The notes below the pieces were generated by a model that was not told the origin of the DNA, searched no databases, and worked only from the letters and a program-made list of their open reading frames with translations. A DNA stretch of 24,000 nucleotides from Azoarcus sp. DD4 (lineage in GTDB: Bacteria; Pseudomonadota; Gammaproteobacteria; Burkholderiales; Rhodocyclaceae), in NCBI RefSeq assembly GCF_006496635.1, contig NZ_CP022958.1:2342700-2366699 (forward strand). The letters run 5' to 3'. This document shows positions 3,048-22,675 of this stretch, in pieces (the first letter of the stretch is position 1; each line of letters opens with the position of its first letter). The translations under genes were made by a program, and so were the position numbers.

Positions 3048-3147
3048 TTCTTGTTTCCAAACTCCATGCTTGAATTCAACGCTTCTCCCGCCGTCGCCAC
3101 GCACGTCGCTGCGGGCGCTGCCGGCGAGCGTTTTTCGGATGCCCGTC

Positions 3148-5998: not shown

Positions 5999-6797
5999 CG
6001 CGCCTTTGACTACCGCGTGGCCTGATCTGTTTGTCAAGAATTCGGTCCTTGTTTGTCCGCTGTCCCAACGAGTCGAGGGGCCGTGACTGATCACGCCGAT
6101 TGTGGTGGGTCGGCCGGCCACCCGCGCGGACGAGCTCGCCTCCTTGCTTCGCCGTGCCCTGAAGCAGGACCACGGTCGCGAGGGCGTCATGCAATGCGGC
6201 TTCACGAGTAATGGCCGCGCCTTCCCGCACTATCACAGCCTCGTTCCAGACGAACCAGTGGAAAAGGATGTCCTCTTCCGCAATGCCAGCCCGAAGTGGA
6301 CCCTGATCAAAAACATATTCGACATTCATCCTCAAGCTCGCTCGTTGTCCCGTCCCGTGCGCCGCAATATGCGCCTGGTCCGCTATCTGGGCCGCTTGTT
6401 GATGATTTCGAGTTCGCCCGTCGAATTCCTGTGACACCGCGGGCAGCGGCCTTCTCTATTGACGGAAAGCATGAGTCGTACCACGTGCGCTTCCCTATGC
6501 CGGAGCGCGGGCCTCTATATCGAGGTACTCCTGAGTCGTCAATAAGATCTCGGAAGCGGGGAAAAAGCTCGAGTCAGGCAGGCGGCTAGGCGTAGCGTCC
6601 TTCGCCGGAGAAACAGTTGGGCGAACAAGCGCGGCCGTGTGTTGCAGATTGATGCCGCTACGTAGCGGTTTGAAACAGCGCAACCGCTGGCCCTGTTACA
6701 CGTGCATGCCAACCGAGCTGTAGCGTACATCCCATTGCTTACGCTGATTTCGGCCCCGGTCGCCGTTTGGCAGTTGCGCGAACGGCTCCTACCTGTT

Positions 6798-7900: not shown

Positions 7901-8126
7901 GCGGGTCGCGGGTTGGAAAGAGCTCGGACCGTTGGCCAACGTTTCGTGCTGTGTCAGCAGATGCCCCAATTCATCATGGGAGAACGACTGACGTAGCTAG
8001 CTACCACGGGCGATCCAACCGCGGGCTGCGCCGCGGGTTCGCCGTGCAAAATCGTTGCGGTTTGCGGTGCTCGCTGCTTTCGTCGCAGTGCGCCCGGAAA
8101 GCCTGCTGCCTCATCTCTGGCCGCTG

Positions 8127-9023
8127 TCACGGGCGGCGCTGACTAGCGGTCAGCCGCTGCGCCGGAGGGCTGCGTCTTGTCACCAAGCGCAGGAGTTCGT
8201 GGGCTCGCTGGGGGTCGAGCTGGTTCCCTGAGAAGCCGTCCGCGCGGCCGGACGACCGTTCGCCTTGCTGGCCGTCGAGTTGCTGTTGGCGACCGGCGTC
8301 GATAGCGGCGAGGTGTTTCATGTCCATGATGGTGATCGAACGTTGGTCGACCCTGATTACCCCGGCATCCCTGAGCTCCCGCAATGCGCGGGAGAAGCTT
8401 TCGTGGCTCATGCCCAGTAGGCGAGCAACGACCACCTTCGAAGTAGGCATCACCACCGTCCGCTGGGTGTTCTTGCCGTCACAAGGGATCTGGTCGAGCA
8501 AATATGCCGCGATTCGCTCCGTTGCGCGGCGGCCCGTGATAGCCCGGATGTGGCCAACCAGAGAATGAAGCGCCGTCGACAAGGCCTCAAACAAGACAGA
8601 CGCAAAGCGGTCGTCGGTGATCATGGCGGCCTGCACCGCACGCATTTGGATGCAAATCAGGGCCGTATCGCACTCGGCTTCTGCCAGGAGTCCAGCAGAC
8701 GGTGCCGCAAATAAGCACGCCGGCCAAAGGAGGCCTCCCGCCTGCACTATCTCGACGATCTTGGCTGGGCCGCGCAGGCCCAGTACAGCCACAAGCATCA
8801 CACCGCGACCAACCAAAATCAGTTGCTCGCGGAGTGGCCCGGTGGGCAGCAAGCACGATCCCTTGGCGACCACGCGGACGTCGGCGTGACTCGCCAGCAA
8901 GTCCAGTGTGTCAGCGTGCAGGTTCTGGAAGAGAGGCGACGTGGTCAGGGCGCCGGCAATATCGCAAAGGCCCGCGGCGGCCAACGCAGTCGACGTCCGA
9001 GTCTCATGGCAGAACAATTCCAA
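8127..9023 (-). CDS. Crp/Fnr-family transcriptional regulator (cNMP-binding-like domain plus C-terminal HTH), 298 aa with an extra Gln/Arg-rich tail
   Basis: ORF 8127..9023(-). SPLFQNLHADTLDLLASHADVRVVAKGSCL opens the effector domain. The HTH is VARLLGMSHESFSRALRELRDAGVI. There is no Fnr-type N-terminal Cys cluster. It is divergent from the CuMMO cluster across a 636-bp spacer. Confidence 0.85.
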   Translation of the reverse strand: MELFCHETRTSTALAAAGLCDIAGALTTSPLFQNLHADTLDLLASHADVRVVAKGSCLLPTGPLREQLILVGRGVMLVAVLGLRGPAKIVEIVQAGGLLWPACLFAAPSAGLLAEAECDTALICIQMRAVQAAMITDDRFASVLFEALSTALHSLVGHIRAITGRRATERIAAYLLDQIPCDGKNTQRTVVMPTSKVVVARLLGMSHESFSRALRELRDAGVIRVDQRSITIMDMKHLAAIDAGRQQQLDGQQGERSSGRADGFSGNQLDPQRAHELLRLVTRRSPPAQRLTASQRRP

Positions 9024-9404: not shown

Positions 9405-9420
9405 TGGCATGGTGCTTGCA
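9405..9420 (+). promoter_or_regulatory. candidate sigma54 (RpoN) -24/-12 promoter TGGCATGGTGCTTGCA, reading toward the FadL-like gene and the CuMMO genes
   Basis: TGGCAT-N5-TTGCA has exact GG-N10-GC spacing and matches the consensus TGGCAC-N5-TTGCW at all but one specified position. It lies in the large intergenic region about 240 nt upstream of the ATG at 9660 and is correctly oriented. Confidence 0.55.
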
Positions 9421-9519
9421 TCTTGCCTCGCGTGCATCGCCAGCGAATTCGCAACAATGTACGTAAGTAGGGCTGATGTGACTCAGCTGGGTGTTTCACG
9501 ATACACATGTGGCGCAGCC

Positions 9520-9563
9520 TGTTACAGAAATGAGCGTGAGAATGTTACAGCCCCGCTGTTACA
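9520..9563 (+). repeat. three direct copies of TGTTACA (9520-9526, 9543-9549, 9557-9563) in the leader/promoter region of the FadL-CuMMO cluster
   Basis: The sequence reads cc-TGTTACAG-aaatgagcgtgagaa-TGTTACAG-ccccgc-TGTTACAT. This is an AT-rich heptamer in a GC-rich genome, clustered three times within 44 bp. One more copy is at 6694-6700. Confidence 0.5.
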
Positions 9564-9659
9564 TATCGCGGGCAAGACATTGGTGGCGTGCGGAAGGCAT
9601 TCGACGGCTGCAGGGAGGCCAGTATGTTTGCATCTGAGTCAAAGGAGAGAGGAGTAAAG

Positions 9660-11087
9660 ATGGGACAAAAACAGAAGAAGGCGATCATTGGCCGTCGCGC
9701 CGGACGACTCGCTGGCTTGAAGACAAGCGGCGCGGGGAGGATTGTGGCGGCGGCCGCCCTCACGTGCGCCACCGGAGCAGCCCACGCGCTTAATACCGGC
9801 ACGGACATGAATTTGTCCTTTAAGCCGGCCTCGGGGGGTATGGCGGGTGCTGCGTACACGAAGCCACAAGAGCCGTCGGCCGCCGTATTCGGTAACCCTG
9901 CGACGATGACTCAGCTCCGCGGAACGAATTTCGGCATCGGGGCTGCCTTTCTCGTTCCCGATGTGGATGTACATCAGAGCGGCGCGGGTGGCTCGCGCAC
10001 ATCGAGCAGTGATGCCCGGAACTATGTCATTCCCGACACCGCCGTCACCCATGAAATCGGTGGCGGCTGGTTCCTCGGTGGCGGTATCGAGCTGGATGCT
10101 GGAATTGGCGTCGACTATAGGGATGATCCCATCACCGTGCCGAGCGTCAGTACCGATCCGGGCGTGAGCGGACTGCCCCTGCTGGTCGAGCTCATTTCGT
10201 TCAACGCCAATGTCGCGGCGGCGAAGCAGGTGACGGAGCGGACCGCGGTTGGCGCGGCGCTTACGATCGGCTTCGGTTTGGCCCAGCTCGGCACCTCCGG
10301 CCCATCCGGGTCGTTTGGAGGGTTGCTTGGACCAGCCGGTTGCGAACCCGCGACGGCGGGTTCGTGCGGATTCGACGGCAACACTTCCAGCGTGCATGAC
10401 GTCGGATTCGGCGCATCGATCGGCCTGACTCACCGCCTCACGTCGGCGCTGACCTTGAGCGCAGCGCTGAAGAGCCCCGTGAAGTACAAATTCAAGAATA
10501 TTCTCCACCAGAGCGCAGTCGGCTCGCCGGGATTCCAGGACCTCACCGTCGAGCAGCCGTTGGAGGCGATCGTCGGTATGGCGTACGACGTCACCCCAAA
10601 CTGGATGGTCGAAGCCGACGTCGTATGGAAGAACTGGAGCAGCGCCGAGACCTACCAAGACGTCTATGACGATCAATACCTGGCCCTCGTCGGCACGCAG
10701 TACCGGACGGGGCCATGGAGTCTGCGCTTCGGCTACAGCTATGCCGAGGATATCCTGCGGGATACCCCCAGCAACACGCTCGGCAACCTGCGCGGGCTCG
10801 GTCCCATTCCGCTCGGGGCGGCTGCAGGTTCCCTCGGTACGGATGTCGTCAAACTGGTCCAGATGACCCTTGTCCCCGTCATCTGGCAGCACACGATTGC
10901 TGCCGGCGTCGGGTTCGACCTCACTTCCAACGTTCGCGTCGACGCATTCGGCGCCTACGGTTTCAAGAACGAAGAGCAGCGGACGACCTCCATCGGCGCG
11001 GCGCTCGCCGGGCCAGTGGGACCGGAAACTTACGAGGCCGAGGTCAGCGCGTGGGCGGTCGGAGCGGGAGTGAATTTCAGGTTTTAG
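9660..11087 (+). CDS. outer-membrane transport protein of the OMPP1/FadL/TodX family (hydrophobic-compound channel), about 475 aa
   Basis: ORF 9588..11087 trimmed to the ATG at 9660, which follows AAAGGAGAGAGGAG. The signal peptide ends ...ATGAAHA. The mature N-terminus has the family-type segment SGGMAGAAYTKPQEPSAAVFGNPATMTQL. The sequence is Gly/Ala-rich in beta-strand pattern and ends ...WAVGAGVNFRF, with the aromatic C-terminus typical of beta-barrel OMPs. Confidence 0.8.
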   Translation: MGQKQKKAIIGRRAGRLAGLKTSGAGRIVAAAALTCATGAAHALNTGTDMNLSFKPASGGMAGAAYTKPQEPSAAVFGNPATMTQLRGTNFGIGAAFLVPDVDVHQSGAGGSRTSSSDARNYVIPDTAVTHEIGGGWFLGGGIELDAGIGVDYRDDPITVPSVSTDPGVSGLPLLVELISFNANVAAAKQVTERTAVGAALTIGFGLAQLGTSGPSGSFGGLLGPAGCEPATAGSCGFDGNTSSVHDVGFGASIGLTHRLTSALTLSAALKSPVKYKFKNILHQSAVGSPGFQDLTVEQPLEAIVGMAYDVTPNWMVEADVVWKNWSSAETYQDVYDDQYLALVGTQYRTGPWSLRFGYSYAEDILRDTPSNTLGNLRGLGPIPLGAAAGSLGTDVVKLVQMTLVPVIWQHTIAAGVGFDLTSNVRVDAFGAYGFKNEEQRTTSIGAALAGPVGPETYEAEVSAWAVGAGVNFRF

Positions 11088-11238
11088 ACGGGGAGGGGTA
11101 TTCGACCCAGGATAGTTGCGTCTGTAGCGGACTGGAACGGTGAATCAAACGACACAGAGTCATTCGCCTGCGCATCGAGCGTGGGTCGATTGAAGAGCGA
11201 AGCCACACAGGTTTCACCCAGGAACAGGAGGAAGGATT

Positions 11239-12039
11239 ATGGGTATCATGCAAGCGGAAGTGGACCAGCCGGCCCGTCAGGTCGATGGGGGAGCGAGCCG
11301 GCCCTCGGCCCGGGCGGATTTTTCGACGGGTGCTATCGCGCCGATTCGCACAACCGCCCTTGGCGTTATCGGCATCCTCGTGCTGATGATCGCGTACAGA
11401 ATCTACCAGCAGGTCTTCGCCTGGTCTGCGGGGCTGGATTCCACGGACCCCGCGTTCGACACCTATTGGATGGGTTTGCTGCAGTGGCAGCTCCCAGCCA
11501 TTGTTGCGAGTTGGGCGGGCTTGTGGTCGTACCTTTTCGTGACGCGTGACCGACACCTCGACAAGCTGGAGCCACGCGAGGAGCTGAAGCGCTATTTCAG
11601 ACTGATCGGTTTCATCTTCCTTTACGCCTTCGCGGTCTATTGGGCGGCGAGCTTCTTTGCAGAGCAGGATGCGGCCTGGCATCAGACGGTGGTGCGCGAT
11701 ACGAGTTTTACACCGAGTCACATCGTGCTCTTCTATGGGACGATGCCGTTCTACGTGCTCTTCGGTGTCGGTTCGCTCCTGTATGCGATGACCCGGCTGC
11801 CGAGATTTGCTGAGCAGCTCTCGATTCCCTTCGTGCTGGCGGTCGCGGGCCCCTTCATGATCCTCCCGAATCTCGGATACAACGAGTGGGGTCACGCTTT
11901 CTGGATGATGGAGGAGTTCTTCTCGGCGCCGTTGCACTGGGGTTTCGTGGTCCTCGGGTGGAGCGTGCTTGCTCTCGGCGGCCTGCTCGTTCAGATCGTC
12001 CAGCATATGACGGAGCTCTTCCGCCGCTGCGACGCATGA
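11239..12039 (+). CDS. amoC: copper membrane monooxygenase subunit C (AmoC/PmoC family), 266 aa
   Basis: FFAEQDAAWHQTVVRDTSFTPSHIVLFYG, LYAMTRLP, GPFMILPNLGYNEWGHAFWMMEEFFSAPLHWGFVVLGWS. Both ligand triads are present: D144-x3-H148-x12-H161 and N215-x3-H219-x13-H233. AGGAGGA precedes the ATG. Confidence 0.96.
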   Translation: MGIMQAEVDQPARQVDGGASRPSARADFSTGAIAPIRTTALGVIGILVLMIAYRIYQQVFAWSAGLDSTDPAFDTYWMGLLQWQLPAIVASWAGLWSYLFVTRDRHLDKLEPREELKRYFRLIGFIFLYAFAVYWAASFFAEQDAAWHQTVVRDTSFTPSHIVLFYGTMPFYVLFGVGSLLYAMTRLPRFAEQLSIPFVLAVAGPFMILPNLGYNEWGHAFWMMEEFFSAPLHWGFVVLGWSVLALGGLLVQIVQHMTELFRRCDA

Positions 12040-12110
12040 GTAAACCCACGGCGGCGGCACCCCTCGTCGGTGGGATGTCGCCACCCGTTTTCGAATAGGT
12101 AACTTCCAAA

Positions 12111-12935
12111 ATGACAAACATTGCTGCATCGGAACAAGTGCGGATCTACGGAGTAACATGGTCGAAATGGTCAGCGGCGCTTTCGAGAAGATTTGACATC
12201 ATGGTTGCGGTGATTCTTTTCCTCGCGATCACTTCCGCCTTTCACCTCCATTTCATGCTGCTCGCCGGCGACTGGGATTTCTGGACCGATTGGAAGGACC
12301 GGCAGTACTGGGTGACGCTGACGCCGATCGTGGCGATCACATTTCCAGCGGCGCTGCACTATGTGTTTTGGGAGAAGTTCAGGCTCCCCTTTGGGGCAAC
12401 CTTTGCGATCGTGTGCCTCATCTTCGGCGAATGGATGAACCGATACTTCGGCTTCCATGTGTGGTCGTACTTCCCGTTCAGCGAGATCTGGCCCGCCACG
12501 ATGATTCCGGGCGCCATCGTCTTGGACGTCGTGTTGCTGCTCACGGGCAATTTCTTCCTTACGGCGGTGATCGGCGGAATAGGATTCGCATTGCTGTTCT
12601 ATCCGGCAAACTGGCCAATGCTCGCGGCCTACCACCTGCCGATGGAAGTCATGAACTCGGTGGTTTCGGTGGCCGACTACATCGGCTACACGTTCACACG
12701 GACCGCCACGCCCGAGTATCTCAGATTCATCGAACGCGGAACCCTGCGTACTTTCGGTGGCCACTCGGCTTGGGTCGCTTCGTTCTTCGCTGGATTCGTG
12801 TGCATGCTTATGTATTTCGCTTGGTGGTATCTGGGCATGCTCCTTACCAAGGTCGTCACCGTCCCGAACAAGTTCAAGCAGTTAATGGGGCTGAAGAAGG
12901 ATCCTCGGCCGTCGAGTGAGCAACTCGCCGTCTGA
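12111..12935 (+). CDS. amoA: copper membrane monooxygenase subunit A (AmoA/PmoA family), 274 aa
   Basis: HFMLLAGDWDFWTDWKDRQYWVTLTPIV, FGATFAIVCLIFGEWMNRYFGF, MIPGAIVLDVVLLLTGN, RTATPEYLRFIERGTLRTFGGHS and WWYLG are hallmark AmoA/PmoA blocks. The SD is weak, so the exact start is slightly uncertain. Confidence 0.96.
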   Translation: MTNIAASEQVRIYGVTWSKWSAALSRRFDIMVAVILFLAITSAFHLHFMLLAGDWDFWTDWKDRQYWVTLTPIVAITFPAALHYVFWEKFRLPFGATFAIVCLIFGEWMNRYFGFHVWSYFPFSEIWPATMIPGAIVLDVVLLLTGNFFLTAVIGGIGFALLFYPANWPMLAAYHLPMEVMNSVVSVADYIGYTFTRTATPEYLRFIERGTLRTFGGHSAWVASFFAGFVCMLMYFAWWYLGMLLTKVVTVPNKFKQLMGLKKDPRPSSEQLAV

Positions 12936-12982
12936 GACCCCGAACAGAACCAAGGGATACACGAATCAAAGGACGAATTTTC

Positions 12983-14239
12983 ATGATTTCGACATTCGGA
13001 AAATGTGTAGTACGGTTGACTTACGCAGTATGGTTCGGAGTACTGCTGTCGCTGTGCGGAAACGCGCTTGCACATGGAGAGCGCAACCAGGAACCCTTCT
13101 TGCGCATGCGCACGGCCCATTTCTATGACTTGCACTGGAGCACGACCAAGACGGAGGTGAATGGCGACATCGTCGTCACTGGCAAGTTCCGTCTGTTCAG
13201 CGACTGGCCAAAGAACCTGCCGGCTCCGGAGCGCTCGTTCCTCGGTAACGGCACGCCGGGTCCGGTTCTCGCACGCACGGAAAGCTGGATTAACGGCGAG
13301 CCGGCGATTCAGTCCGGCCGGCTCGAACTCGACCGCGACTACGAGTTCAAAACCGTGCTCAAGGGGCGCATCCCAGGCAAGCACCACGTGCACCCGATGA
13401 TCAACGTCGAAGGGGCGGGTCCGCTGCTCGGTCCCGGCAGTTGGCTGGAGGTAACGGGTAACGCCGCCGACTTCAAGTTGCCGGCGACGACAATCGACGG
13501 TACTCAAATCGAGAATCTCGAGACGTGGGGCATGGGGACCGTGAAGACCGTCCACATCGGCTGGTACATCGCCGCCCTGGTATTCATGCTGTGGTGGCTG
13601 CGCAAGCCGTTGCTGATGCCGCGTGCGGTTGCTCTGCAAGCCGGTAACGAGGAGGAGCTGGTTACCCGCGGGGACCGTCTCTGGGGTGCGGCTTTCGGCA
13701 TCGCGACCGTGGTCGTCGTGATTTGGGGCGCGAACTGGGCCGAGGCGACCTACCCCCGGACGATCCCGCTCCAAGGAGGCGAGTTCAACGTCGAGCCACT
13801 GCCGATGGACAACCGTACCGTCAGCGTCCGTGTCAGGCGTGCGACGTACGACGTCCCCGGACGTTCCATGAAGCTGAAGCTCGAGCTCACCAACGACGGC
13901 GACAAGCCCGTGTCAATCGGCGAATTCGCAACCGCGGGCCTGCGGTTCATCAACAAATCGGTTCCCGCCGCGGTCGCTGCGATCGATCCGACTTTCCCGA
14001 TGGATCTGGTGCCGCCCAGCGGACTGCAGGTGGCAGACAGCAGGCCGCTCGCACCGGGTGAGACGCGGCTGATCGAGATGGAAGCGACCGATGCAGCTTG
14101 GGAAGCCGAGCGGCTGACCAGCCTGCTGAACGACCCGGACAACCGGGTCGGCGGCCTGCTGTTCCTCTACGACGCTGACGGCGAACGTGTGATCGCCAAT
14201 GTGTCGGGTCCGATCGTGCCAGTGTTCACCAAGTCCTGA
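12983..14239 (+). CDS. amoB: copper membrane monooxygenase subunit B (AmoB/PmoB family), 418 aa
   Basis: The signal peptide ends ...GNALA, and the mature protein starts HGERNQEPFLRMRTAHFYDL. Other blocks are GRIPGKHHVHPMINV, two internal TM helices, ATYDVPGRSMKL, GEFATAGLRFIN and the C-terminal GPIVPVFTKS. The CuB-type ligands H31, H135 and H137 are present. Confidence 0.96.
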   Translation: MISTFGKCVVRLTYAVWFGVLLSLCGNALAHGERNQEPFLRMRTAHFYDLHWSTTKTEVNGDIVVTGKFRLFSDWPKNLPAPERSFLGNGTPGPVLARTESWINGEPAIQSGRLELDRDYEFKTVLKGRIPGKHHVHPMINVEGAGPLLGPGSWLEVTGNAADFKLPATTIDGTQIENLETWGMGTVKTVHIGWYIAALVFMLWWLRKPLLMPRAVALQAGNEEELVTRGDRLWGAAFGIATVVVVIWGANWAEATYPRTIPLQGGEFNVEPLPMDNRTVSVRVRRATYDVPGRSMKLKLELTNDGDKPVSIGEFATAGLRFINKSVPAAVAAIDPTFPMDLVPPSGLQVADSRPLAPGETRLIEMEATDAAWEAERLTSLLNDPDNRVGGLLFLYDADGERVIANVSGPIVPVFTKS

Positions 14240-14262
14240 GCTCCGGGCTCGGATCGTGATGC

Positions 14263-14288
14263 GCGCGGGACCATTCTCGGTCCCGCGC
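14263..14288 (+). terminator. perfect 10-bp GC-rich stem-loop (GCGCGGGACC-attctc-GGTCCCGCGC) just after amoB; possible attenuator or mRNA-stabilising hairpin, no U-tract
   Basis: Read directly from the sequence, 24 nt after the amoB stop and 3 nt before the SD (GGAGAG) of the next ORF. The missing T-run argues against a strong intrinsic terminator. Confidence 0.35.
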
Positions 14289-14301
14289 CACGGAGAGCTT
14301 C

Positions 14302-14916
14302 ATGCATTGTTGGTTTAGATCCAGGCTATTTGCGTTGTTGGCCGTTGGCTTGTGGGGGGGGATCGTCCCCCTTCAGGTCCAGGCTCATGGTGGGCTCAGC
14401 CTGGAGGAAGATAAGTGCAGGCTGACCATCGGCCCGTATTCGATGCACTTCACCGGTTACCAGCCCGAGGCGACCGGGACCAAGGAGTTTTGCGAGGATA
14501 TTCCCGAGACGGGTCACACCGTCGTGGCACTGGACGCCATCGACGAGCAGTTGAGACACCTGCCAATCGAGGTGCGGATCATTCGTGATACCGGTGACGA
14601 GAGCAACATCGACGCTGTGACCGTACTGCATCTGAAGCCCAAAACGTATCCTACGGGGAGCCTCTCCCTTGAGCACGATTTTCCGCAGCCGGGCAGGTTC
14701 GTCGGATTGGTTACCGCGGTTGGGGACAAGGAGACCTACGTCTCCCGGTTTCCCTTCAGTGTCGCCAGCACGTCGGCGGCACTGGCGAAGTACGTCCCGA
14801 TGGTTGGCGTCGTCTTGGCGGGCATCCTGCTCTACCTGTACTCCGGCCAGCGGCGCGGCAGGGAAGCGAGAAAGACGCGCGGTGTAGGCCCGAAGGCAGG
14901 CGGTTCGACCTCGTGA
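14302..14916 (+). CDS. exported single-pass membrane protein in the position, and with the architecture, of PmoD/AmoD/AmoE (signal peptide, about 130-aa periplasmic domain, C-terminal TM helix), 204 aa
   Basis: The signal peptide ends ...LQVQA, and the mature N-terminus is HGG. The Cys/Met/His cluster C39-RLTIGPYS-M48-H49 is followed by FC64EDIPETGH72. The C-terminal TM is YVPMVGVVLAGILLYLY, followed by a basic tail. SD GGAGAG precedes the ATG. The family assignment rests on position and architecture, not on an alignment. Confidence 0.55.
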   Translation: MHCWFRSRLFALLAVGLWGGIVPLQVQAHGGLSLEEDKCRLTIGPYSMHFTGYQPEATGTKEFCEDIPETGHTVVALDAIDEQLRHLPIEVRIIRDTGDESNIDAVTVLHLKPKTYPTGSLSLEHDFPQPGRFVGLVTAVGDKETYVSRFPFSVASTSAALAKYVPMVGVVLAGILLYLYSGQRRGREARKTRGVGPKAGGSTS

Positions 14917-15863
14917 AACGACAATCGAAGCGACTGAATTCGGGAGTCGCGGGGCTGTCGATCGATGGGGCATTCAAGCGAAAGTTCGCCTGGTCGCTCT
15001 GTTCTGTGCTGATTGTCATCGGACTCGGAGCGTGCTCGGGGGCATCAGATGCCGAGATTGCCGCGACACAGCGGGCCTTTGATTATTCGAAGAGCGAGCG
15101 GGAGGCTATCTGTGCGCCGGGCGACAAGTCCGGGGAGATGTTCAAGAACAATGAGAAATCGGCGGACGGAATCCGCTACAACATTCGAGCGCCGGCGAAT
15201 TACGATCCGACGGTCGGACATCCGCTACTGGTCGTGTATGCCGCAGGCGGCTCGAGCGCGGAAAGAACCGAGGCGCTGACGGGCTTCACGCCGGTGGCGA
15301 CAAAGAGGGGATACATCGTGGTTTATCCGGACCACCGTCCCATGTCGGTCGCCACGATTCACCGACTGGCGAGGATTCCAAGCGAAGTCGCGGACCATTG
15401 GTGTGTCGACCGAACGAAGATCTATGCAAGCGGGCACTCTGACGGCGGCACTGTGGCGACCGCGGTTGCGCTATTGGCCGAAACGAAAGGGACGTTGGCT
15501 GCGATCGCCCCCAGTGCCGCGGGCTTTTCCGCAGCAGATCTAGATGGCTTCGAGTGCCCTTCGCCCACGCCGGTAATGGTGATGCATGGCAGCGGGGACT
15601 TGGTCTTTCCCGGCTGGGGAGCGGCGGCTGCCAAGTGGTGGGGTAAGTGTAACCGATGTGACATATCCGTTGGAGCCGAGGAGGTGGGTAGCGGATGCGT
15701 TGAATTCAAGGGCTGCGCGGCGGGCGGCCAGACTCGGTTTTGCAGTTGGGAAGGATCCCATAGACAGTGGCCTGGAATGGAAGGGGAGGTGGTCAATTTT
15801 TTCGATGCTCGTTGGGGCGCCGCGATGAGTTCTTCTGCTCCGGTTCCGGCGCTTGTGAAGTAG
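14913..15863 (+). CDS. lipoprotein alpha/beta-hydrolase, PHB-depolymerase/LpqC-type esterase family, 316 aa
   Basis: The GTG start overlaps the upstream stop (GTGA at 14913-14916). Lipobox is VIGLGAC-SG. Family layout: IRYNIRAPANYDPTVGHPLLVVYAAGG, RGYIVVYPDH, nucleophile elbow YASGHSDGG, PVMVMHGSGDLVFP and a Cys-rich C-terminal part (WWGKCNRC). Confidence 0.75.
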   Translation: MKRQSKRLNSGVAGLSIDGAFKRKFAWSLCSVLIVIGLGACSGASDAEIAATQRAFDYSKSEREAICAPGDKSGEMFKNNEKSADGIRYNIRAPANYDPTVGHPLLVVYAAGGSSAERTEALTGFTPVATKRGYIVVYPDHRPMSVATIHRLARIPSEVADHWCVDRTKIYASGHSDGGTVATAVALLAETKGTLAAIAPSAAGFSAADLDGFECPSPTPVMVMHGSGDLVFPGWGAAAAKWWGKCNRCDISVGAEEVGSGCVEFKGCAAGGQTRFCSWEGSHRQWPGMEGEVVNFFDARWGAAMSSSAPVPALVK

Positions 15864-15881
15864 GTCCAGGACCGGCGTTTG

Positions 15882-15921
15882 GGGGAGGATGCACTACAGA
15901 CAGTCGTCTTCCCCTTTTTTT
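15882..15921 (+). terminator. candidate rho-independent terminator after the esterase gene (GGGGAGGA ... TCTTCCCC followed by T7)
   Basis: An 8-bp stem (one G-U pair), a long 17-nt loop, then TTTTTTT at 15915-15921, 19 nt after the stop. The large loop lowers confidence. Confidence 0.4.
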
Positions 15922-15945
15922 CTTTAACCAGCAAAGGGAAACATC

Positions 15946-16269
15946 ATGAGTGGAGCGAAGCTGATTGTGATCTATCCGATGCCGACGGATGTTGCGGCGT
16001 TCGAAGAGGTGTATCGCGACGAACACGTGCCGATGGCGATGGAAAAGCTCAAGGGAGCAACCAAGATCGTAGCCTCGAGAGTAGTCGGGGCGCCTGACGG
16101 AAACCCGGCCTTTCACAGAATTGCGGAGGTGCATTTCCCTTCTATGGTCGCGTTGGGAGAGTGTGCGGCCTCCGAAGGGGGGCAGCAGACCATCGACCAC
16201 GCGAGGCGGATCTCGTCCGGTGGCGCTCCCCTCTTCCTGGTCGCGGAGGAAGCAACGGTCGTTCTTTGA
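15946..16269 (+). CDS. EthD-family protein (TIGR02118-like small dimeric alpha/beta-barrel protein), 107 aa
   Basis: AKLIVIYPMPTDVAAFEEVYRDEHVPMAMEKLKGATKIVASRVVGAPDGNPAFHRIAEVHFPSMVALGECAASEGGQ... follows the EthD/TIGR02118 pattern as I remember it (K.v.lY..P.D...Fd.yY...H.pl......g.......y.....l.F.s.eal...l.s.eg). Confidence 0.8.
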   Translation: MSGAKLIVIYPMPTDVAAFEEVYRDEHVPMAMEKLKGATKIVASRVVGAPDGNPAFHRIAEVHFPSMVALGECAASEGGQQTIDHARRISSGGAPLFLVAEEATVVL

Positions 16270-16456
16270 GGGGGGCGCGGGGGGCCGCTGTGCTGTGTGC
16301 GTGCCGTTCCCGTGTGGCTACCGGTACGCACTCGTGGCATCGGGTTGGGGCCCCACGTTATTGCTGAGAGGCGGCGGCGTTCGGCCTGGAAGGCGCCGCG
16401 CCGTAGAGACGGCCCTGGAATTTTTCACGTTCCGGGGGCATGAGGAGGACGAAAAG

Positions 16457-16861
16457 ATGCCGAAGCTGGCTGGGTGGATCGCTCGCAGGGGAATCGCGTT
16501 CGGTTTGGCCGTGTTCTGTGCGGGGATGCTGCCGCTCGACGCCAGCGCCCACGCCCGCCTGGTGAAAGCGGAGCCGGCGCGGCGGGCGGAGCTGTCGGAA
16601 GCGCCGGGCATGATCAGAGTGTGGTTCAACGAGGAACTCGAGGCCGCATATGCCAAGCTCGTGGTCGAAGAGGCGTCAGGGCGGGCGGTGACCGAGTCGA
16701 AGCCGCAATTGGCCCCCGACGACGCGAAGTCCCTGATCCTTCCGTTGCCCGCTCTTGGGCCGGGAAAGTACCGCGTGAGATTTCGGGTTCTTTCAGTGGA
16801 CGGCCACGTCGTCGAGTCCGCTTATGACTTCACTGTGAAAGGGGGAGTTTCGACTCGATGA
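16457..16861 (+). CDS. copC: periplasmic copper-binding protein CopC (Cu(II)-site-only type), 134 aa
   Basis: ORF 16121..16861 trimmed to the ATG at 16457, which follows GAGGAGGA. The signal peptide ends ...LDASA, and the mature protein starts HARLVKAEPARRAELSEAPGMIRVWFNEELE. GKYRVRFRVLSVDGHVVES provides the D-x-H motif. There is no Met-rich Cu(I) loop. The stop overlaps the copD start (ATGA). Confidence 0.9.
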   Translation: MPKLAGWIARRGIAFGLAVFCAGMLPLDASAHARLVKAEPARRAELSEAPGMIRVWFNEELEAAYAKLVVEEASGRAVTESKPQLAPDDAKSLILPLPALGPGKYRVRFRVLSVDGHVVESAYDFTVKGGVSTR

Positions 16862-18876
16862 TTGAAGTGGTCGGTGCCGTCGCCCACTGGATACAGCTGG
16901 CAGCCAACATGGTGCTGGTTGGCAGCAGCTTCTTCCTCGGTTTCATAGGATATGACAACGAGAGGTGCACGAATCCTTGGCTGGGGCGGCTTGAGCGCGT
17001 TCTTCCGTGTCTCGGGGCTGTGGTCCTGCTTGGTCTGATCGGTGTCGTCTCGACCTCCACGGCGCGCATCACGGCCGACGTGACAGCCGCCTGGCAGCCG
17101 GACGCCTGGATCGGTGTGATGCGCGATACCCGGGTGGGGCAGGTGTGGGCAATCAGAGGGGGGCTGGCGCTGGTGGTGATGGTGGCCGCGGTTTATGTCC
17201 GGCGGGCACGGGCAAGGTCATGGAATTACTTCGCTTGTGGAGGATTGGCGGGCGTCGCGCTAGCTTTCAGTTCGTTCGCGGGCCATGCCGCAGCCGATGA
17301 CTCACCGTGGTTGACGATCCCCCCTCACACACTGCACCTCCTTGCGGCGAGTCTCTGGTTCGGTAGCTTGCCGGCGTTTCTCGCGTCTGCGTCGGGGGGC
17401 GCCGGTGCCGCGGAGGCGGAGAAGTGCTTTTCCATTCGCGCGCTCAACCGCTTTTCCATGGTCGCGTTGCCGATCATGATCGTCGTCGTCGTCAGCGGCA
17501 TTGTCGTTGCCTACTATCAGGTCGCGCCCGCCTTCGGAGGGCTGGTAGCGACGAGGTACGGATGGCTTCTCCATGGAAAGCTCGCCTTGCTGATCGCTAT
17601 TCTCGCCATTGCAGCGCGAGCTCGATTTCGATGGCTACCTGGGCTCTCCGGCAATTGCGAAATCGAGGAGGCGCAATGTGCGCGACGCCTGCGCACCTGG
17701 GTAGGCGTTGAAGTCGGGTGCGCGACCCTTCTGCTACTTGTCGCGAGCGTGCTGGCGGCCACGGTGCCGGCCAAGCACGAGGGCATCGACGCATGGCCGT
17801 ATCCTTTTCGTTTCTCCATCGCCGCCACCTGGGACGAGCCGGGTACGCGGACCCTCGTGCTCGTCGGCGGCGCGTTGCTGATCGCCGGTGGAGTGGCTGC
17901 GCTGGTCGGGCGGCGCCAGCGGTGGAGGCGTTCAGCCGTTGTCGGCGCCGCCGTCGCCTTCGTACTGCCCGGGACAGCATTGCCGCTCTACGCGATCGCA
18001 ACCCCGGCCAGCGAGTATACCTACCGGCCCAGCACGGTTCCTTTCGACGCCATCTCGATTTCGCGGGGCAGCGCGCTGTTCGAAGCCAATTGTGAGCAAT
18101 GTCATGGCCCCCAAGGCATGGGGAATGGGCCACTGGCGAAATCGCTGCGCAAGCCGCCAATCGATCTTCTTACCGAACCGCATACCGCCAGGCACACTGC
18201 CGGAGATTTCTTCAACTGGATCACCACCGGCTTTCCCGACAGCGGAATGCCGGCATTCGGCGATCGGTTTTCGGAGGACGATCGGTGGGACCTGGTGAAT
18301 TTCATCCACGCGCTGTCGCGCGGCTACCAGAGCCGCCCCCTAGGTGCCGCCGTCATTCCGGACAAGCCTGCAGCGACGCTCGGCGCTCCCGATTTTTCGT
18401 TCGTGAGCTACAAGGGCGAACAAGGAACGCTGAAGGATCACCGCGAGCGCGAGGCTGTCCTGCTGGTGTTTTTCTCCTGGCCGGAATCCAAGGACCGGCT
18501 GGACCAATTGGCCGCCACATACCGGTCGATCCGGGCACGAAGTGCTCAAGTCATCGCTGTTCCGTGGAAGGGCGCGGCCTCTGCCGTTGATCAATTGGCC
18601 GGTTATCCATACCCGATTGTGGCCGATGGCGCGCGGGGAATCGGGCGAACCTACGAGGCGTTCAGGCGAACTCTATCGGACCCGGACCTGTTCGGCAGGG
18701 GCAAGCGACCCGGTCATATGGAACTTCTCGTCGACCGCTTCGGTTACCTGCGTGCGCGCTGGATTCCGGATCAAGACGTTCGAGGTTGGAGAGACGGAGC
18801 GATGCTGGCTGAACAACTGGAACGCTTGCGCGCGGAAAGACAGATCCTGCCGCCGGCGGAGGAACACGTCCACTAG
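16858..18876 (+). CDS. copD: CopD-family inner-membrane copper transporter fused to a mono-haem c-type cytochrome domain and a C-terminal Cys-less thioredoxin/AhpC-TSA-fold domain, 672 aa
   Basis: The N-terminal 300 aa or so are polytopic and CopD-like, and translationally coupled to copC. Further TM helices follow. Then comes FEANCEQCHGPQGMGNGPLA (CxxCH, aa 412-416, nt 18091-18105) with downstream SGMPAFG and DRWDLVNFIHAL, typical of class I cytochrome c. The last 170 aa or so resemble redoxins (FSFVSYKGEQGTLKDHREREAVLLVFFSWPESKD...VIAV...YPIVAD...YEAF) but contain no cysteine. Confidence 0.85.
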   Translation: MIEVVGAVAHWIQLAANMVLVGSSFFLGFIGYDNERCTNPWLGRLERVLPCLGAVVLLGLIGVVSTSTARITADVTAAWQPDAWIGVMRDTRVGQVWAIRGGLALVVMVAAVYVRRARARSWNYFACGGLAGVALAFSSFAGHAAADDSPWLTIPPHTLHLLAASLWFGSLPAFLASASGGAGAAEAEKCFSIRALNRFSMVALPIMIVVVVSGIVVAYYQVAPAFGGLVATRYGWLLHGKLALLIAILAIAARARFRWLPGLSGNCEIEEAQCARRLRTWVGVEVGCATLLLLVASVLAATVPAKHEGIDAWPYPFRFSIAATWDEPGTRTLVLVGGALLIAGGVAALVGRRQRWRRSAVVGAAVAFVLPGTALPLYAIATPASEYTYRPSTVPFDAISISRGSALFEANCEQCHGPQGMGNGPLAKSLRKPPIDLLTEPHTARHTAGDFFNWITTGFPDSGMPAFGDRFSEDDRWDLVNFIHALSRGYQSRPLGAAVIPDKPAATLGAPDFSFVSYKGEQGTLKDHREREAVLLVFFSWPESKDRLDQLAATYRSIRARSAQVIAVPWKGAASAVDQLAGYPYPIVADGARGIGRTYEAFRRTLSDPDLFGRGKRPGHMELLVDRFGYLRARWIPDQDVRGWRDGAMLAEQLERLRAERQILPPAEEHVH

Positions 18877-18955
18877 GACACTTGGACGCAACCTGAGGAG
18901 CTCAAGCCTCTGCTCTGTAAACAGAGGCTACCTATCAAATGGGAGGATGGTAATC

Positions 18956-19429
18956 ATGAAGAGACTTTCCCTTGTCGCACTGCTTGCAGCGGTGCTTGCC
19001 GCATCCGTACCGGCGGCTGCGCATACCGATGAGTATCTAGAGGCGGTGAAGGCGCCTCACGGCGGGCGGTTGCGGATGTCGGGCCCATATCACCTTGAAC
19101 TGGTGGTTAAGGACCGCGACATCCTCGTGTATGTCACGGATCATGGCGACAAGGAGATCGCTACGGCGGGAGGTGAGGGCAAGGTCGTCTTGCAGCGTGG
19201 ATCGAGCAGGGTGTCCGTGCGGCTGGAGCCGTCAGGAGGCAACGTCCTGAGAGGGAAGAGCGAATCTGGGATTACTCCGAGCACGAGCGCGGTTGTCTTT
19301 GTGAAGCTGCCTGGGCAGGACGCCTACTCGGCGCGCTATCCTGCACCAAAGCCTGTAGATCCCCAGCCGGCCGCGCATCGCGGAGGGGCTGCCAGCCAGC
19401 ACGACGGGCATCACATGATGCATCACTAG
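18956..19429 (+). CDS. small secreted His/Met-rich protein, putative periplasmic metal (copper) binding, 157 aa
   Basis: ORF 18542..19429 trimmed to the ATG at 18956, which follows GGGAGGA. The signal peptide MKRLSLVALLAAVLAASVPAAA is followed by the mature N-terminus HTDEY. Other features are HGGRLRMSGPYHLELVVKDRDILVYVTDHGDKE and the C-terminus QHDGHHMMHH. I cannot name a family. Confidence 0.7.
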   Translation: MKRLSLVALLAAVLAASVPAAAHTDEYLEAVKAPHGGRLRMSGPYHLELVVKDRDILVYVTDHGDKEIATAGGEGKVVLQRGSSRVSVRLEPSGGNVLRGKSESGITPSTSAVVFVKLPGQDAYSARYPAPKPVDPQPAAHRGGAASQHDGHHMMHH

Positions 19430-19751: not shown

Positions 19752-20216
19752 GTGATCCGAATCAAGTTCCTCCGCAGGCTCACCGCCTGGATTGCCAGCT
19801 ACGCGATCCTGCTGGGCGCGCTCGCACCGGCCGTGACCCAAACCTTGGCGTGGTTGGAACGCGGGAGTGCAGACAAAGCCACATCGTTGGAGGTTTCGGC
19901 GGCCGCCGACATCCTCACGTCCGTGGGGGCAGAGGAGGACGGCCATGAGGCCTGCGAGTCCCACGAAGGCCACGCGGGTCACCAGGACCAGGGCCTCGAG
20001 GGTCATGAAGGGGGCGGTCACGAGGCCGCGGGCAGCGGGCATTGTCCCTTCTGCGGCACCCACGCCGGTTCCTTTGGCCTGCCGCCCACCGAACGGCCTG
20101 CGGCGGCGCAGCCCGCCGGGACGCATGCTTTCCGTCCCCATCTCTACGATCACGCCCCGCGTCCGCTCTTCGCCTGGGCGGCCGCCCATCCTCGCGCACC
20201 GCCTGTCCGCGCCTGA
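19752..20216 (+). CDS. DUF2946-like protein (N-terminal TM/signal anchor, His/Glu-rich linker, HCPFC motif), 154 aa
   Basis: GTG start. MIRIKFLRRLTAWIASYAILLGALAPAVTQTLAW, then EEDGHEACESHEGHAGHQDQGLEGHEGGGHEAAGSGHCPFCGTHAGSFGLPP. The architecture, the CPxC motif and the position just upstream of a TonB-dependent receptor are typical of DUF2946 as I recall it. Confidence 0.65.
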   Translation: MIRIKFLRRLTAWIASYAILLGALAPAVTQTLAWLERGSADKATSLEVSAAADILTSVGAEEDGHEACESHEGHAGHQDQGLEGHEGGGHEAAGSGHCPFCGTHAGSFGLPPTERPAAAQPAGTHAFRPHLYDHAPRPLFAWAAAHPRAPPVRA

Positions 20217-20392
20217 TCCCGATCGATGAGCCGGTATTCCCCTGCACGGTGGTCCGGCTCAATTTCAACCCGATCCGTTAGCCCCGACTGTTCCGTTGAA
20301 TCGTCGCCGTCCCGATGAGGCCGGCGGCTGCCGCGCGCTGCCAGCGCCGGCCGGGATCGGGGCTCCGGGATGTCTCGTCGTGGACCCGAAAT

Positions 20393-22675
20393 ATGAAGCT
20401 CAACTGCAAACCCCTCGTGCTCGCGGTCCTGGGGGCCCTTTCCTCCGGGGCGCTCGCGGAGCAGACGTCAAATAAGGATGGCGATACCGCCATTCAACTC
20501 GACGAAGTCGTGATTACCGGCGGCGCGCCGTCGCCCCTGCCGCCCACGGTGCAGGCAGTGGTCGAGGGGGTGACGGCCGAGACCATGGCCGAGTCGATCA
20601 ACGTGGTGAACACCGAGGACGCGCTCAAGTACCTGCCCAGCCTGCAGATCCGCAAGCGCTTCATCGGCGACACCAACGGTATCGTGGCCTCCCGTTCGTC
20701 GGGCACGCTCGCCAGCGCGCGCGCCCTCGTCTATGCCGACGGCCTGCTGCTCTCGAACCTGCTCGGCAACTCCTTTGCCTATCCGCCGCGCTGGGGCCTG
20801 GTGACCGCCGAGGAGATCGCCCGCATCGACGTCCTCTATGGGCCGTTTTCCGCGCTTTATCCGGGCAATTCGATGGGTGCGCTGATCCACATGACGACGC
20901 GGATGCCCGACAAGCTGGAGGCGCACGTCAAGGCGCAAGCCTTTACGCAGGACTTCCGTCTCTACGGCACCGACGAGTCCTTCTCCGGCCATCAGCTGGC
21001 CGCCGCGTTGGGTAGCCGCAGCGGGGCGTGGTCGTGGTGGTTCAACGCCAGCCGCTTGGACAGCGAGGGCCAGCCGATGGGCTTCGTCACCAGGCCCGCC
21101 TCGTCCACGCCGGCCGAGGCCGGCGACACTGTGGCGACGGGGGCGCGGCATGACCGCGATCCGCGCGGCAGCAAGCGCGTGGTGCTGGGCGCCACGGGCA
21201 TGGCGCATACCGTGCAGGATCATGCCAAGCTGAAGCTCGCCTACGACTTCTCCCCGGCGGTGCGCGCCACCTACACCGTCGGCCTGTGGCAGAACGACGC
21301 CGACAACGGCGTCGCCTCCTACCTGCGAGATGGGGCCGGGCGGGCGGTCTACAGCGGCACGGTGAATGTTGACGGCCGGCGTTATACGCTCGCCGCAACC
21401 GACTTCAGCCCTAGCCGCGCCGAGGCCGAGCACTGGATGCATGGTCTCGCGCTGAAGACGAGCACCGGCGGCGAGTGGGACGGCGAGGCGGTGGTTAGCG
21501 TGTACGACTACGGCAAGGATCTGCTGCGCTCCCCGGGCGCTGCGCTGCCGGCCGCCGGACGGGGCGGCAGCGGCCAGATCGCCGACCTCGAGGGCACCGG
21601 CTGGACCGCCGTCGACCTGCGGGGCGTCTGGCGTGCGGCCGGCGCCCACGAGCTCTCCTTCGGCTACCACGGCGACCACTACAAGCTGCGCACCCTCGTT
21701 TCCAATACCTCCGACTGGATCGACGGCGGCGCCCGAAGCCGCAAGTCGGCCTTCACCGGGGACACCGAGACCACCGCCCTTTACCTGCAGGAGGTGTGGC
21801 GCTTCGCGCCCGCCTGGAGCGCCACCCTGGGTGGCCGCTGGGAGCGCTGGGAGGCGCACGACGGCTCGATCTCGAACGCGACCACGACGCTGCGCTTCGG
21901 CGAGCGCGAGGAACACTTCTTCTCGCCCAAGCTGGCGCTTGCTTACCGCCCGGCGCCGGAATGGATGCTGCGCGCCGCCCTCGCTCGCGCCTACCGCATG
22001 CCTACCGTGGCGGAGCTCTACCAGGGCTCGATCAGCGCCAACACCATCGTGCGGAACGATCCCGGCCTCAAGCCGGAGAAGGCTCTCGCCGCCGAGCTCA
22101 CCGCCGAGCGCGACCTCGGCAACGGCCTCGTGCGCCTCTCCCTGTTCGAGGAGGACGCCGAGGACGCGCTGTTTTCCCAGACCGACGTCACCGTCACGCC
22201 TAACGTCACCAACATCCAGAACATCGACAAGATCCGCACCCGCGGCGTCGAACTCGCGTACCAGGGGGTGGATGTTGGGCTGCGCGGACTGGATCTCGCT
22301 GCGAGCCTGACCTACGCCGACTCGGAGATCCTCGCCAACCGCCGCAACCCGGCGAGCGTCGGCAAGAAGCAGCCGCGCGTGCCCGACTGGCGGGCGGTGC
22401 TGTCGGCCACCTATCGCCAGAGCGAGCGCCTCGCCTACGCCCTCGGCGTCCGCTACAGCGGCCGTCAGTACGGCGAACTCGACAACGGCGACGTCAATGG
22501 CGACACTTACGGCGGCGTGGGGCGCTTCTTCGTCGTCGATGCGCGCGTCAGCTACAAGCTCGCCCGCCAGTGGACCGCGGCGCTCGGCGTCGACAACCTC
22601 AACGATCAGAAGCACTTCGTGTACCACCCCTATCCGCAGCGCACCTGGGTGGCCGAGCTGAAGGCCGATTTCTGA
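20393..22675 (+). CDS. TonB-dependent outer-membrane receptor (possibly a copper/chalkophore-type transporter), about 760 aa
   Basis: ORF 20315..22675 trimmed to MKLNCKPLVLAVLGALSSGALA-EQ. TonB-box-like IQLDEVVITG. Plug-domain blocks NTEDALKYLPSLQIR, GIVASRSSG and ARIDVLYGPFSALYPGNSMGALIHMTT. A long beta-barrel ends ...TWVAELKADF (terminal Phe). The antisense ORF 20468..22735 is an artefact. Confidence 0.9.
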   Translation: MKLNCKPLVLAVLGALSSGALAEQTSNKDGDTAIQLDEVVITGGAPSPLPPTVQAVVEGVTAETMAESINVVNTEDALKYLPSLQIRKRFIGDTNGIVASRSSGTLASARALVYADGLLLSNLLGNSFAYPPRWGLVTAEEIARIDVLYGPFSALYPGNSMGALIHMTTRMPDKLEAHVKAQAFTQDFRLYGTDESFSGHQLAAALGSRSGAWSWWFNASRLDSEGQPMGFVTRPASSTPAEAGDTVATGARHDRDPRGSKRVVLGATGMAHTVQDHAKLKLAYDFSPAVRATYTVGLWQNDADNGVASYLRDGAGRAVYSGTVNVDGRRYTLAATDFSPSRAEAEHWMHGLALKTSTGGEWDGEAVVSVYDYGKDLLRSPGAALPAAGRGGSGQIADLEGTGWTAVDLRGVWRAAGAHELSFGYHGDHYKLRTLVSNTSDWIDGGARSRKSAFTGDTETTALYLQEVWRFAPAWSATLGGRWERWEAHDGSISNATTTLRFGEREEHFFSPKLALAYRPAPEWMLRAALARAYRMPTVAELYQGSISANTIVRNDPGLKPEKALAAELTAERDLGNGLVRLSLFEEDAEDALFSQTDVTVTPNVTNIQNIDKIRTRGVELAYQGVDVGLRGLDLAASLTYADSEILANRRNPASVGKKQPRVPDWRAVLSATYRQSERLAYALGVRYSGRQYGELDNGDVNGDTYGGVGRFFVVDARVSYKLARQWTAALGVDNLNDQKHFVYHPYPQRTWVAELKADF

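Follow-up and report, generated by a model that had tools for sequence, protein, structure and literature searches.

A complete operon for a copper membrane monooxygenase (CuMMO), called xmoCAB here, lies in a 24,000-nucleotide stretch of the Azoarcus sp. DD4 genome (NZ_CP022958.1, positions 2,342,700–2,366,699; hereafter the window, whose own numbering is used throughout). The encoded enzyme is globally equidistant from ammonia monooxygenase (AMO), particulate methane monooxygenase (pMMO), and Pxm by sequence comparison, and belongs to a recognized, widespread set of proteobacterial CuMMOs (Xmo) without a functionally tested member. Its physiological substrate is most likely a short-chain hydrocarbon, namely, a C2–C4 alkane or possibly an alkene, a reading to which we assign a probability of about 60%. 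CuMMOs drive methane and ammonia oxidation, and many of their relatives reside in ordinary heterotrophs (Bradyrhizobium, Rhodocyclales, and Gammaproteobacteria metagenome-assembled genomes (MAGs)) without tested function. Because DD4 is available in culture, uses propane for growth, and is the subject of gene-function studies, it offers a practical host for finding the substrate of this branch.

The xmoCAB operon and its place among copper membrane monooxygenases

Open reading frame (ORF) listing and Pfam scans outline a plus-strand run of eleven genes (9660–19429), which are presumably co-transcribed. At its core are xmoC (11239–12039; PF04896, E 4e-96, 322 bits, cut-off 27), encoding subunit C with the CuC and CuD sites; xmoA (12111–12935; PF02461, E 2e-99, 333 bits, cut-off 27), encoding subunit A; and xmoB (12983–14239; PF04744, E 7e-142, 474 bits, cut-off 23), encoding subunit B with a signal peptide and the CuB histidine brace. 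The three genes are contiguous at 11239–14239 and all exceed the gathering scores of their families, which assigns them to the AMO/pMMO/XMO superfamily. Ligand positions were mapped to those described for the AMO of Nitrosomonas halophila. The CuB ligands of XmoB are H31, H135, and H137, with H31 being the first residue past the ALA|HGE signal cleavage site. In XmoC, CuC is formed by D144, H148, and H161, plus D154, and CuD by N215, H219, and H233, plus E226. The enzyme therefore displays the histidine brace, the CuC (Asp, His, His) site, and the CuD (Asn, His, His) site that define CuMMO membership. The bis-His site of XmoB is incomplete, as H46 is kept and the second His is replaced by R70. 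By these sequence features, XmoCAB is probably a functional three-subunit monooxygenase with copper-dependent activity.

An earlier note on this stretch, made from the sequence letters alone, had described a complete CAB operon at these positions with all expected ligands, which the Pfam scans and the mapping of CuB, CuC, and CuD confirm. It also labeled the operon as being of the type found in betaproteobacterial ammonia-oxidizing bacteria (β-AOB) on the basis of selected blocks in the three subunits. Each quoted motif is correct when set against the sequences of solved AMOs (9CL6, N. europaea; 9PXF, Nitrosospira briensis; 9LEG, N. halophila) and pMMOs. XmoC displays RDTSFTPSH, YAMTRLP, NEWGHAFW, and SAPLHWGF, the same as N. 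europaea and N. briensis AmoC, whereas PmoC of Methylococcus capsulatus Bath reads RDTDFTPSH, YAKTRLP, GHTFW, and APLHYGF. The RTFGGH and WWYLG blocks of XmoA are AmoA states (RTFGKD and WHFIG in Bath PmoA), and XmoB agrees with AmoB in HGER.QEPFLRMRT, YDVPGR, TAG.RF.N, and the C-terminal PVFTK. Every copper ligand of β-AOB AMO is present in DD4, the second-sphere residues D154 and E226 among them; the surroundings of CuC and CuD are almost identical, and several motifs of subunits A and B are shared.

Comparison of PDB bit scores and of whole-length alignment columns revealed that this choice of motifs was one-sided. XmoB scores highest against PmoB of gammaproteobacterial methane-oxidizing bacteria (γ-MOB; 379 and 375 bits), above AmoB (363, 344, and 336 bits). 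XmoA gives a near tie between N. briensis AmoA (289 bits), N. europaea AmoA (278 bits), and Bath PmoA (277 bits), and XmoC scores 260 bits against N. briensis AmoC and OB3b PmoC alike. Over 826 concatenated C+A+B columns, N. europaea AMO is 47.7% and Bath pMMO 47.4% identical to the DD4 enzyme; the values for Methylomagnum Pxm and for the hydrocarbon monooxygenase (HMO) of Mycolicibacterium chubuense NBB4 are 49.1% and 36.8%. At 430 columns that discriminate AMO from pMMO, DD4 agrees with AMO in 111 and with pMMO in 104 (p=0.68); with a larger reference set the count is 92 to 75, with 128 columns matching neither (p=0.22). Net charge and pI of mature subunit B fail to separate AMO, pMMO, and the DD4 sequence. 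The β-AOB label is not supported by these comparisons or by the trees described below.

Neighbor-joining (NJ) bootstrap distance trees were constructed from few reference sequences and from related loci (numbered with the prefix L) drawn from genomes and metagenomes, and the deep branching order is for that reason not settled. A family search with subunit A among 50%-identity representatives retrieved mostly unnamed or fragmentary proteins, which served as tree background only. In the concatenated CAB tree, a check that the earlier note had proposed, DD4 lies inside none of the AOB, MOB, or hmo reference clades: it falls outside the Nitrosomonas/Nitrosospira clade, its own group being recovered with 100% bootstrap; no bootstrap support joins it to the methanotroph PmoCAB or PxmABC clades; and it does not cluster with actinobacterial hmoCAB, HMO being the most distant reference. 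In 72% of NJ replicates, the Xmo groups are set apart from AMO, pMMO, Pxm, and HMO; in 50%, AMO stands on the Xmo side of a split from Pxm, HMO, and Bath pMMO. Among the Xmo sequences, DD4 pairs with a groundwater Rhodocyclales MAG (L001; 76% concatenated identity, 93–96% bootstrap, and 77–80% identity in XmoA). This pair then joins Gammaproteobacteria MAGs (72% identity, 100% bootstrap), and the next relatives are CuMMOs from many cultured Bradyrhizobium strains (62% identity in subunit B). DNA and protein searches of a plasmid collection retrieved no close relative, the only references found being Methylomagnum pxmABC and actinobacterial hmoCAB. AMO-type motif states are found throughout the Rhodocyclales/Gammaproteobacteria MAG clade and occur in part in Bradyrhizobium.

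Relative to β-AOB AMO, identity is 52–55% in A, 52–53% in C, and 42–43% in B, the residue at the position of His46 in DD4 is Gln in AOB, and the DD4 host is a heterotrophic propanotroph. pMMO (M. capsulatus Bath, M. alcaliphilum 20Z, and Methylosinus/Methylocystis) and Pxm (pxmABC of a Methylomagnum plasmid) possess the same three subunits and copper sites as DD4 at an identity equal to that of AMO, but pMMO differs in the surroundings of CuC and CuD quoted above, Pxm in its gene order (ABC rather than CAB), and both in that DD4 is not known as a methanotroph. The actinobacterial HMO and butane monooxygenase (BMO) of M. chubuense NBB4 and Rhodococcus sp. ZPP also come from organisms that are neither methanotrophs nor nitrifiers and grow on short alkanes or alkenes, and they share with DD4 the CAB order and a nearby AMP-binding gene. 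However, identity to HMO is only 42% in A, 38% in C, and 32% in B, and no PmoD/CopCD module is annotated downstream. The closest likeness is to proteobacterial Xmo (Rhodoferax, Polaromonas, Bradyrhizobium, and Solimonas), with which DD4 shares CAB followed by a PmoD homologue and a heterotrophic, hydrocarbon-using host, features that place it in this class. For Rhodoferax and Polaromonas, whose xmoCAB(D) is attributed to Rochman et al. (2020), this likeness is taken from published descriptions. CuMMOs of unknown function have been recognized in all four genera, including the Bradyrhizobium and Solimonas operons of Khadka et al. (2018).

The DD4 operon is not a new discovery. XmoB is 100% identical to the NCBI protein 'AmoB [Azoarcus sp. 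DD4]' encoded on a 5.4-Mb contig, two further proteins of the window (the esterase lipoprotein and the AmoC-like ORF described below) likewise match DD4 proteins, and the operon is annotated in GenBank; a look-up of the exact XmoA sequence returned no record. The 2019 genome paper, which describes DD4 as a propanotroph and diazotroph from activated sludge and reports its culture for sequencing with propane as the only carbon source, lists "a copper membrane particulate monooxygenase" alongside five soluble di-iron monooxygenases and a CYP153. The earlier note suggested that this could be an uncharacterized CuMMO lineage. The clade has no tested function, but the operon was already named in that paper, and related CuMMOs are recognized in the literature.

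Accessory genes and the upstream channel

Comparison of the relatives' loci defines a conserved module in which CAB is followed by PmoD, an esterase, CopC, a CopD–cytochrome c fusion, and a His/Met-rich protein. The gene after xmoB in DD4, xmoD (14302–14916, plus strand, as are all genes of the cluster), encodes a 204-residue cupredoxin of the PmoD/AmoD family with a signal peptide and a C-terminal membrane anchor (hydrophobic segments 8–28 and 158–181); a phmmer search of the PDB matched residues 38–152 to 6cpd (E 9e-21). Two motif classes, Cx7MxH and Cx8MH, have been distinguished in this family, with Cx8MH...C being AmoD-type (Fisher et al., 2018). XmoD carries C39-x8-M48-H49...C64 and is accordingly a family member of the AmoD type. 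A homologue directly follows subunit B in every relative examined.

Downstream of xmoD lies a gene for a 316-residue lipoprotein carboxylesterase (14913–15863; lipobox LGAC) of the polyhydroxybutyrate (PHB) depolymerase/carbohydrate esterase family 1 (CE1) α/β-hydrolase type, which matches the NCBIfam short-chain-length polyhydroxyalkanoate depolymerase model weakly. S176, D229, and H283, together with six Cys, are invariant across 26 homologues, and the AlphaFold2 model (mean confidence score, pLDDT, 85.6) comes closest in fold to feruloyl esterases, acetyl-xylan esterases, and PHB depolymerase. The esterase is kept in the clusters of L001, L003, L005, L007, and L010/11, and its closest homologues are encoded on the same contigs as CuMMO genes. 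A role as a CuMMO accessory shared with comammox Nitrospira was considered and rejected, as the Nitrospira homologues sit among 3-deoxy-D-manno-octulosonate (KDO) and phospholipid genes. The next gene (15946–16269) encodes a 107-residue EthD-family protein (TIGR02118, 45 bits, cut-off 30.5), which among loci L001–L007 is found only in L001, at 71% identity.

The remaining genes have predicted links to copper. CopC, a periplasmic copper-binding protein (16457–16861; PF04234, E 2e-20), has a signal peptide ending ...ASA|HARLV, which leaves His as the mature N-terminus. The adjacent 672-residue protein (16858–18876) fuses a CopD membrane domain (PF05425) to a c-type cytochrome (PF00034/PF13442) and a thioredoxin-fold domain (PF00578); it has eight hydrophobic segments and one heme motif (CEQCH at residue 412). 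There is no Cys past residue 490, and a redox role of the thioredoxin-fold domain is therefore unlikely. CopC and the CopD–cytochrome c fusion are encoded downstream of the operon in each of the longer relatives' loci, with the same architecture after CopC in L011–L015. A small exported protein of 160 residues (18947–19429), whose sequence ends in the His/Met-rich stretch HDGHHMMHH, is a putative periplasmic copper binder; it matches no Pfam family above threshold. Homologues are encoded after CopD in L001, L002, and L003, and a weak one in L007.

This arrangement bears on the AOB-like layout proposed in the earlier note. An AmoD-type gene followed by copC and copD is indeed shared with β-AOB, but DD4 lacks an amoE gene, adds the esterase and EthD genes, and fuses CopD to cytochrome c; furthermore, pmo operons of alphaproteobacterial MOB also carry pmoD-copC-copD. 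Instead of the single small gene that had been placed between xmoB and copC, there are three. Bradyrhizobium CuMMO clusters share CopC and CopD–cytochrome c downstream of CAB and PmoD, whereas DD4 and L001 add the EthD gene, and DD4 alone adds a channel gene with a putative σ54-type promoter.

That channel gene (9660–11087) precedes xmoC and encodes a distant member of the FadL/TodX family of outer-membrane channels for hydrophobic compounds (PF03349 Toluene_X, 75 bits, E 5e-21); the protein has no sequence-level match in the PDB, and the gene is not conserved beside the operon in relatives. A putative σ54-type −24/−12 promoter element, TGGCATGGTGCTTGCA (9405–9420, plus strand), is an exact match to TGGCAY-N5-TTGCW and lies 240 nt before the FadL/TodX start. 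It is the only such element in the window, where 0.04 are expected; at least one arises in 4 of 100 shuffled sequences. No gene for an enhancer-binding activator was found in the window and no σ54 element in the relatives' loci. Generic σ70 and terminator scans gave background level only, and an Rfam scan returned zero matches.

The likely substrate and its rivals

A C2–C4 substrate is favored because of the physiology of the host and the nearby genes for C3/C4 acyl-CoA metabolism, and because the clade is represented in Bradyrhizobium and in MAGs assigned to Rhodocyclales and Gammaproteobacteria, none of them known nitrifiers or methanotrophs. Presence of a hydrophobic-compound channel before CAB, FadL/TodX in DD4 and an OmpW-family gene in L011, is counted for the same reading. 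The acyl-CoA genes lie on the minus strand of the window and comprise an acyl-CoA synthetase (3148–4836; NCBIfam/Pfam profile scans), a CoA-transferase nearest to butyryl-CoA:acetate CoA-transferase (1719–3200; 493 bits against a cut-off of 675), and prpE, truncated at the left end of the window (1–489; best NCBIfam match propionate-CoA ligase, 281 bits, profile positions 1–163). Literature on related Betaproteobacteria is said to point toward C2–C4 hydrocarbons as well, and Rochman and co-workers reportedly tied CuMMOs to ethane and propane in 2020.

In the proposed mechanism, the FadL/TodX channel, probably driven by σ54, would admit the hydrophobic substrate through the outer membrane. XmoB would be exported and carry the CuB histidine brace, and XmoC would provide the adjacent CuC and CuD, which in pMMO and AMO are the sites of O2 activation and substrate hydroxylation. 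XmoD would act as a membrane-anchored AmoD-type cupredoxin, while CopC, the CopD–cytochrome c fusion, and the His/Met-rich protein may acquire, reduce, and deliver copper. The alcohol, aldehyde, or acid products could then enter the propionate-CoA ligase, the butyryl-CoA:acetate CoA-transferase-like enzyme, and the short-chain acyl-CoA synthetase. XmoCAB would thereby constitute an additional copper-dependent route beside the soluble di-iron monooxygenases of DD4.

Several observations weigh against a short-chain hydrocarbon as the substrate. A later review assigned the propane activity of DD4 to TmoABCDEF and PrmABCD, so that the CuMMO may be dispensable for growth on propane, and our literature search found neither a paper testing the DD4 CuMMO nor expression or activity data for it. 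The FadL/TodX channel, prpE, acyl-CoA synthetase, and CoA-transferase named as neighbors in the earlier note are all present, but the CoA genes are 5–11 kb from the operon on the opposite strand and are linked to it by proximity only, with a methyltransferase, an IS630-family transposase, and a Crp/Fnr regulator intervening. Most relatives' flanks consist of housekeeping or unrelated genes. The blocks flanking the copper sites of subunit C are near-identical to those of β-AOB AmoC, and a hydrocarbon substrate leaves the roles of the esterase and the EthD-like protein unaccounted for.

Those copper-site blocks raise the alternative that the enzyme is an ammonia monooxygenase whose hydroxylamine is handled elsewhere, as in heterotrophic nitrification or ammonia co-oxidation, with the AOB-like residues reflecting substrate preference. 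The RTFGGH, WWYLG, HGER.QEPFLRMRT, and PVFTK motifs, the AmoD-type Cx8MH of XmoD, and the position of AMO as the characterized lineage beside the Xmo group in half of the NJ replicates point the same way, although the copper-site sequence is the only real support for ammonia oxidation, itself unlikely. We consider this explanation very improbable: global identity and diagnostic columns are evenly divided between AMO and pMMO, the AMO-type states are spread through the MAG clade and in part Bradyrhizobium, a FadL/TodX channel would be pointless for NH3, and DD4 has been reported as a propanotroph and diazotroph, not known as either a nitrifier or a methanotroph, in line with the earlier note. 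That note had also remarked on the absence of hao/cycAB-type genes from the window, and none were found there. In AOB genomes, hao (hydroxylamine oxidoreductase, HAO) is not known to be linked to amoCAB, and its absence from the window therefore carries little weight; no multiheme HAO-type gene occurs within ~20 kb around any relative examined. There is only a slim chance that the Xmo clade of DD4, with its AMO-type copper-site sequence in subunit C and its AmoD-type partner in a hydrocarbon-oxidizing heterotroph, is the nearest surviving relative of betaproteobacterial AMO. DD4 would then show the kind of enzyme that was recruited for ammonia oxidation in Betaproteobacteria, or its enzyme might itself oxidize ammonia efficiently. 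If it were the closest AMO relative, DD4, being genetically tractable, would furnish an experimental handle on what determines CuMMO substrate choice.

A different small hydrophobic or oxygenated substrate is a less probable alternative; candidates include alkene epoxidation, acetone (as for PMO3 of Methylacidiphilum), an ether, or a monoaromatic, with the esterase and EthD-like protein processing the product. CuMMOs are promiscuous, one pMMO homologue oxidizes acetone, toluene supports growth of DD4, and the conserved module includes a periplasmic esterase with an intact triad. The EthD family is named for a protein of an ether-degradation cluster, and the combination of a TodX-type channel with a σ54-type promoter recalls aromatic catabolic operons. 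Yet no sequence feature singles out one of these compounds, members of the esterase family are also encoded among housekeeping genes unrelated to CuMMOs, and of loci L001–L007 just one has the EthD gene. It is also conceivable, though improbable, that the cluster is a horizontally acquired and largely cryptic island with little role in the conditions known so far, since DD4 already has five di-iron monooxygenases and a CYP153 with which to oxidize hydrocarbons, propane activity being credited to Tmo and Prm. The context is GC-rich, as the earlier note stated (63.7% for the window), but xmoA is just 55.8% GC, below the 66.7% of the genome, and third-codon-position GC (GC3) is 0.67–0.79 in the cluster versus 0.88–0.89 in right-flank genes. 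The IS630 transposase gene, 1.8 kb ahead of the gene for FadL/TodX, and a degenerate AmoC-like paralogue nearby fit such an island. The GC3 contrast, the conjugative-element site of a Bradyrhizobium homologue, and the L001 module sitting between housekeeping genes together suggest a mobile, self-contained module. Against crypticity, all eleven genes of the cluster are intact, with full conservation of ligands, signal peptides, and catalytic residues, and the module order is the same across distant hosts, which argues for selection on function.

Oxidation of a C2–C4 hydrocarbon, one of the options listed in the earlier note, remains the favored reading, and DD4 suits its examination. The strain is applied to remediate contamination by 1,4-dioxane and chlorinated ethenes and has already been used in gene-function studies. 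Knockout and heterologous expression are said to have been among the methods. DD4 is suited to testing whether the AMO-like copper-site residues affect substrate choice and could reveal the roles of the AmoD-type cupredoxin, the esterase lipoprotein, the CopD–cytochrome c fusion, and the His/Met-rich protein. A copper-dependent co-oxidizing enzyme beside di-iron monooxygenases could, moreover, alter the effect of copper on the field performance of the strain.

Other genes of the window and variant loci

Upstream of the cluster, a Crp/Fnr-family regulator (8127–9023, minus strand; PF13545; FtrB-like, 75 bits, below cut-off) is divergent from the FadL–xmo genes and was not found in the relatives' loci. 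The IS630-family DDE transposase (6839–7882, plus strand; PF13358) shows no clear terminal inverted repeats in 6400–8200. Between the CoA-transferase gene and prpE lies the degenerate AmoC-like ORF (887–1621, minus strand; 244 residues; NCBI hypothetical protein CJ010_10910; PF04896, 55 bits). It is ~25% identical to XmoC and has lost a CuC histidine (WR for WH) as well as the CuD Asn and last His; when 5.8 billion proteins were searched by a word-based method, only the ORF itself was retrieved. On the other side, the cluster is directly followed by genes for a DUF2946 protein and a TonB-dependent receptor (19752–22675, plus strand), a pairing often tied to copper uptake. Across this interval GC3 rises from ~0.69–0.77 to 0.89, a step that may mark an island boundary.

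Several related loci depart from the DD4 arrangement. In L011, a PrpE-like ligase, an acrylyl-CoA reductase, and an aldehyde dehydrogenase are encoded near the CuMMO genes; an adjacent 'Zn-ADH' considered as an alcohol dehydrogenase was rejected, being the acrylyl-CoA reductase (AcuI). L005 and L007 (Alphaproteobacteria/Bradyrhizobium MAG), which belong to a more distant group, encode a subunit B (~10001–11190) without the CuB brace (ALGEK for AHGE and WHLQPE for HVHPM) and retain the CAB-PmoD-CopC-CopD layout. In the Bradyrhizobium contig L012 (1783–21323), xmoCAB-PmoD-CopC-CopD is found amid relaxase, coupling-protein, and type IV secretion genes and an IS66 (insertion sequence) fragment, a gene content that suggests transfer of the cluster on a conjugative element. 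Ahead of the CuMMO cluster of L013, a Gammaproteobacteria MAG, lie MbnB/TglH-like and HvfC-like genes together with a small ORF (6002–7909, minus strand), an arrangement reminiscent, by analogy, of copper- or metal-binding peptide operons. Finally, L001 carries two extra PmoD paralogues directly upstream of xmoC (6667–7960, plus strand), giving three PmoD genes per operon.

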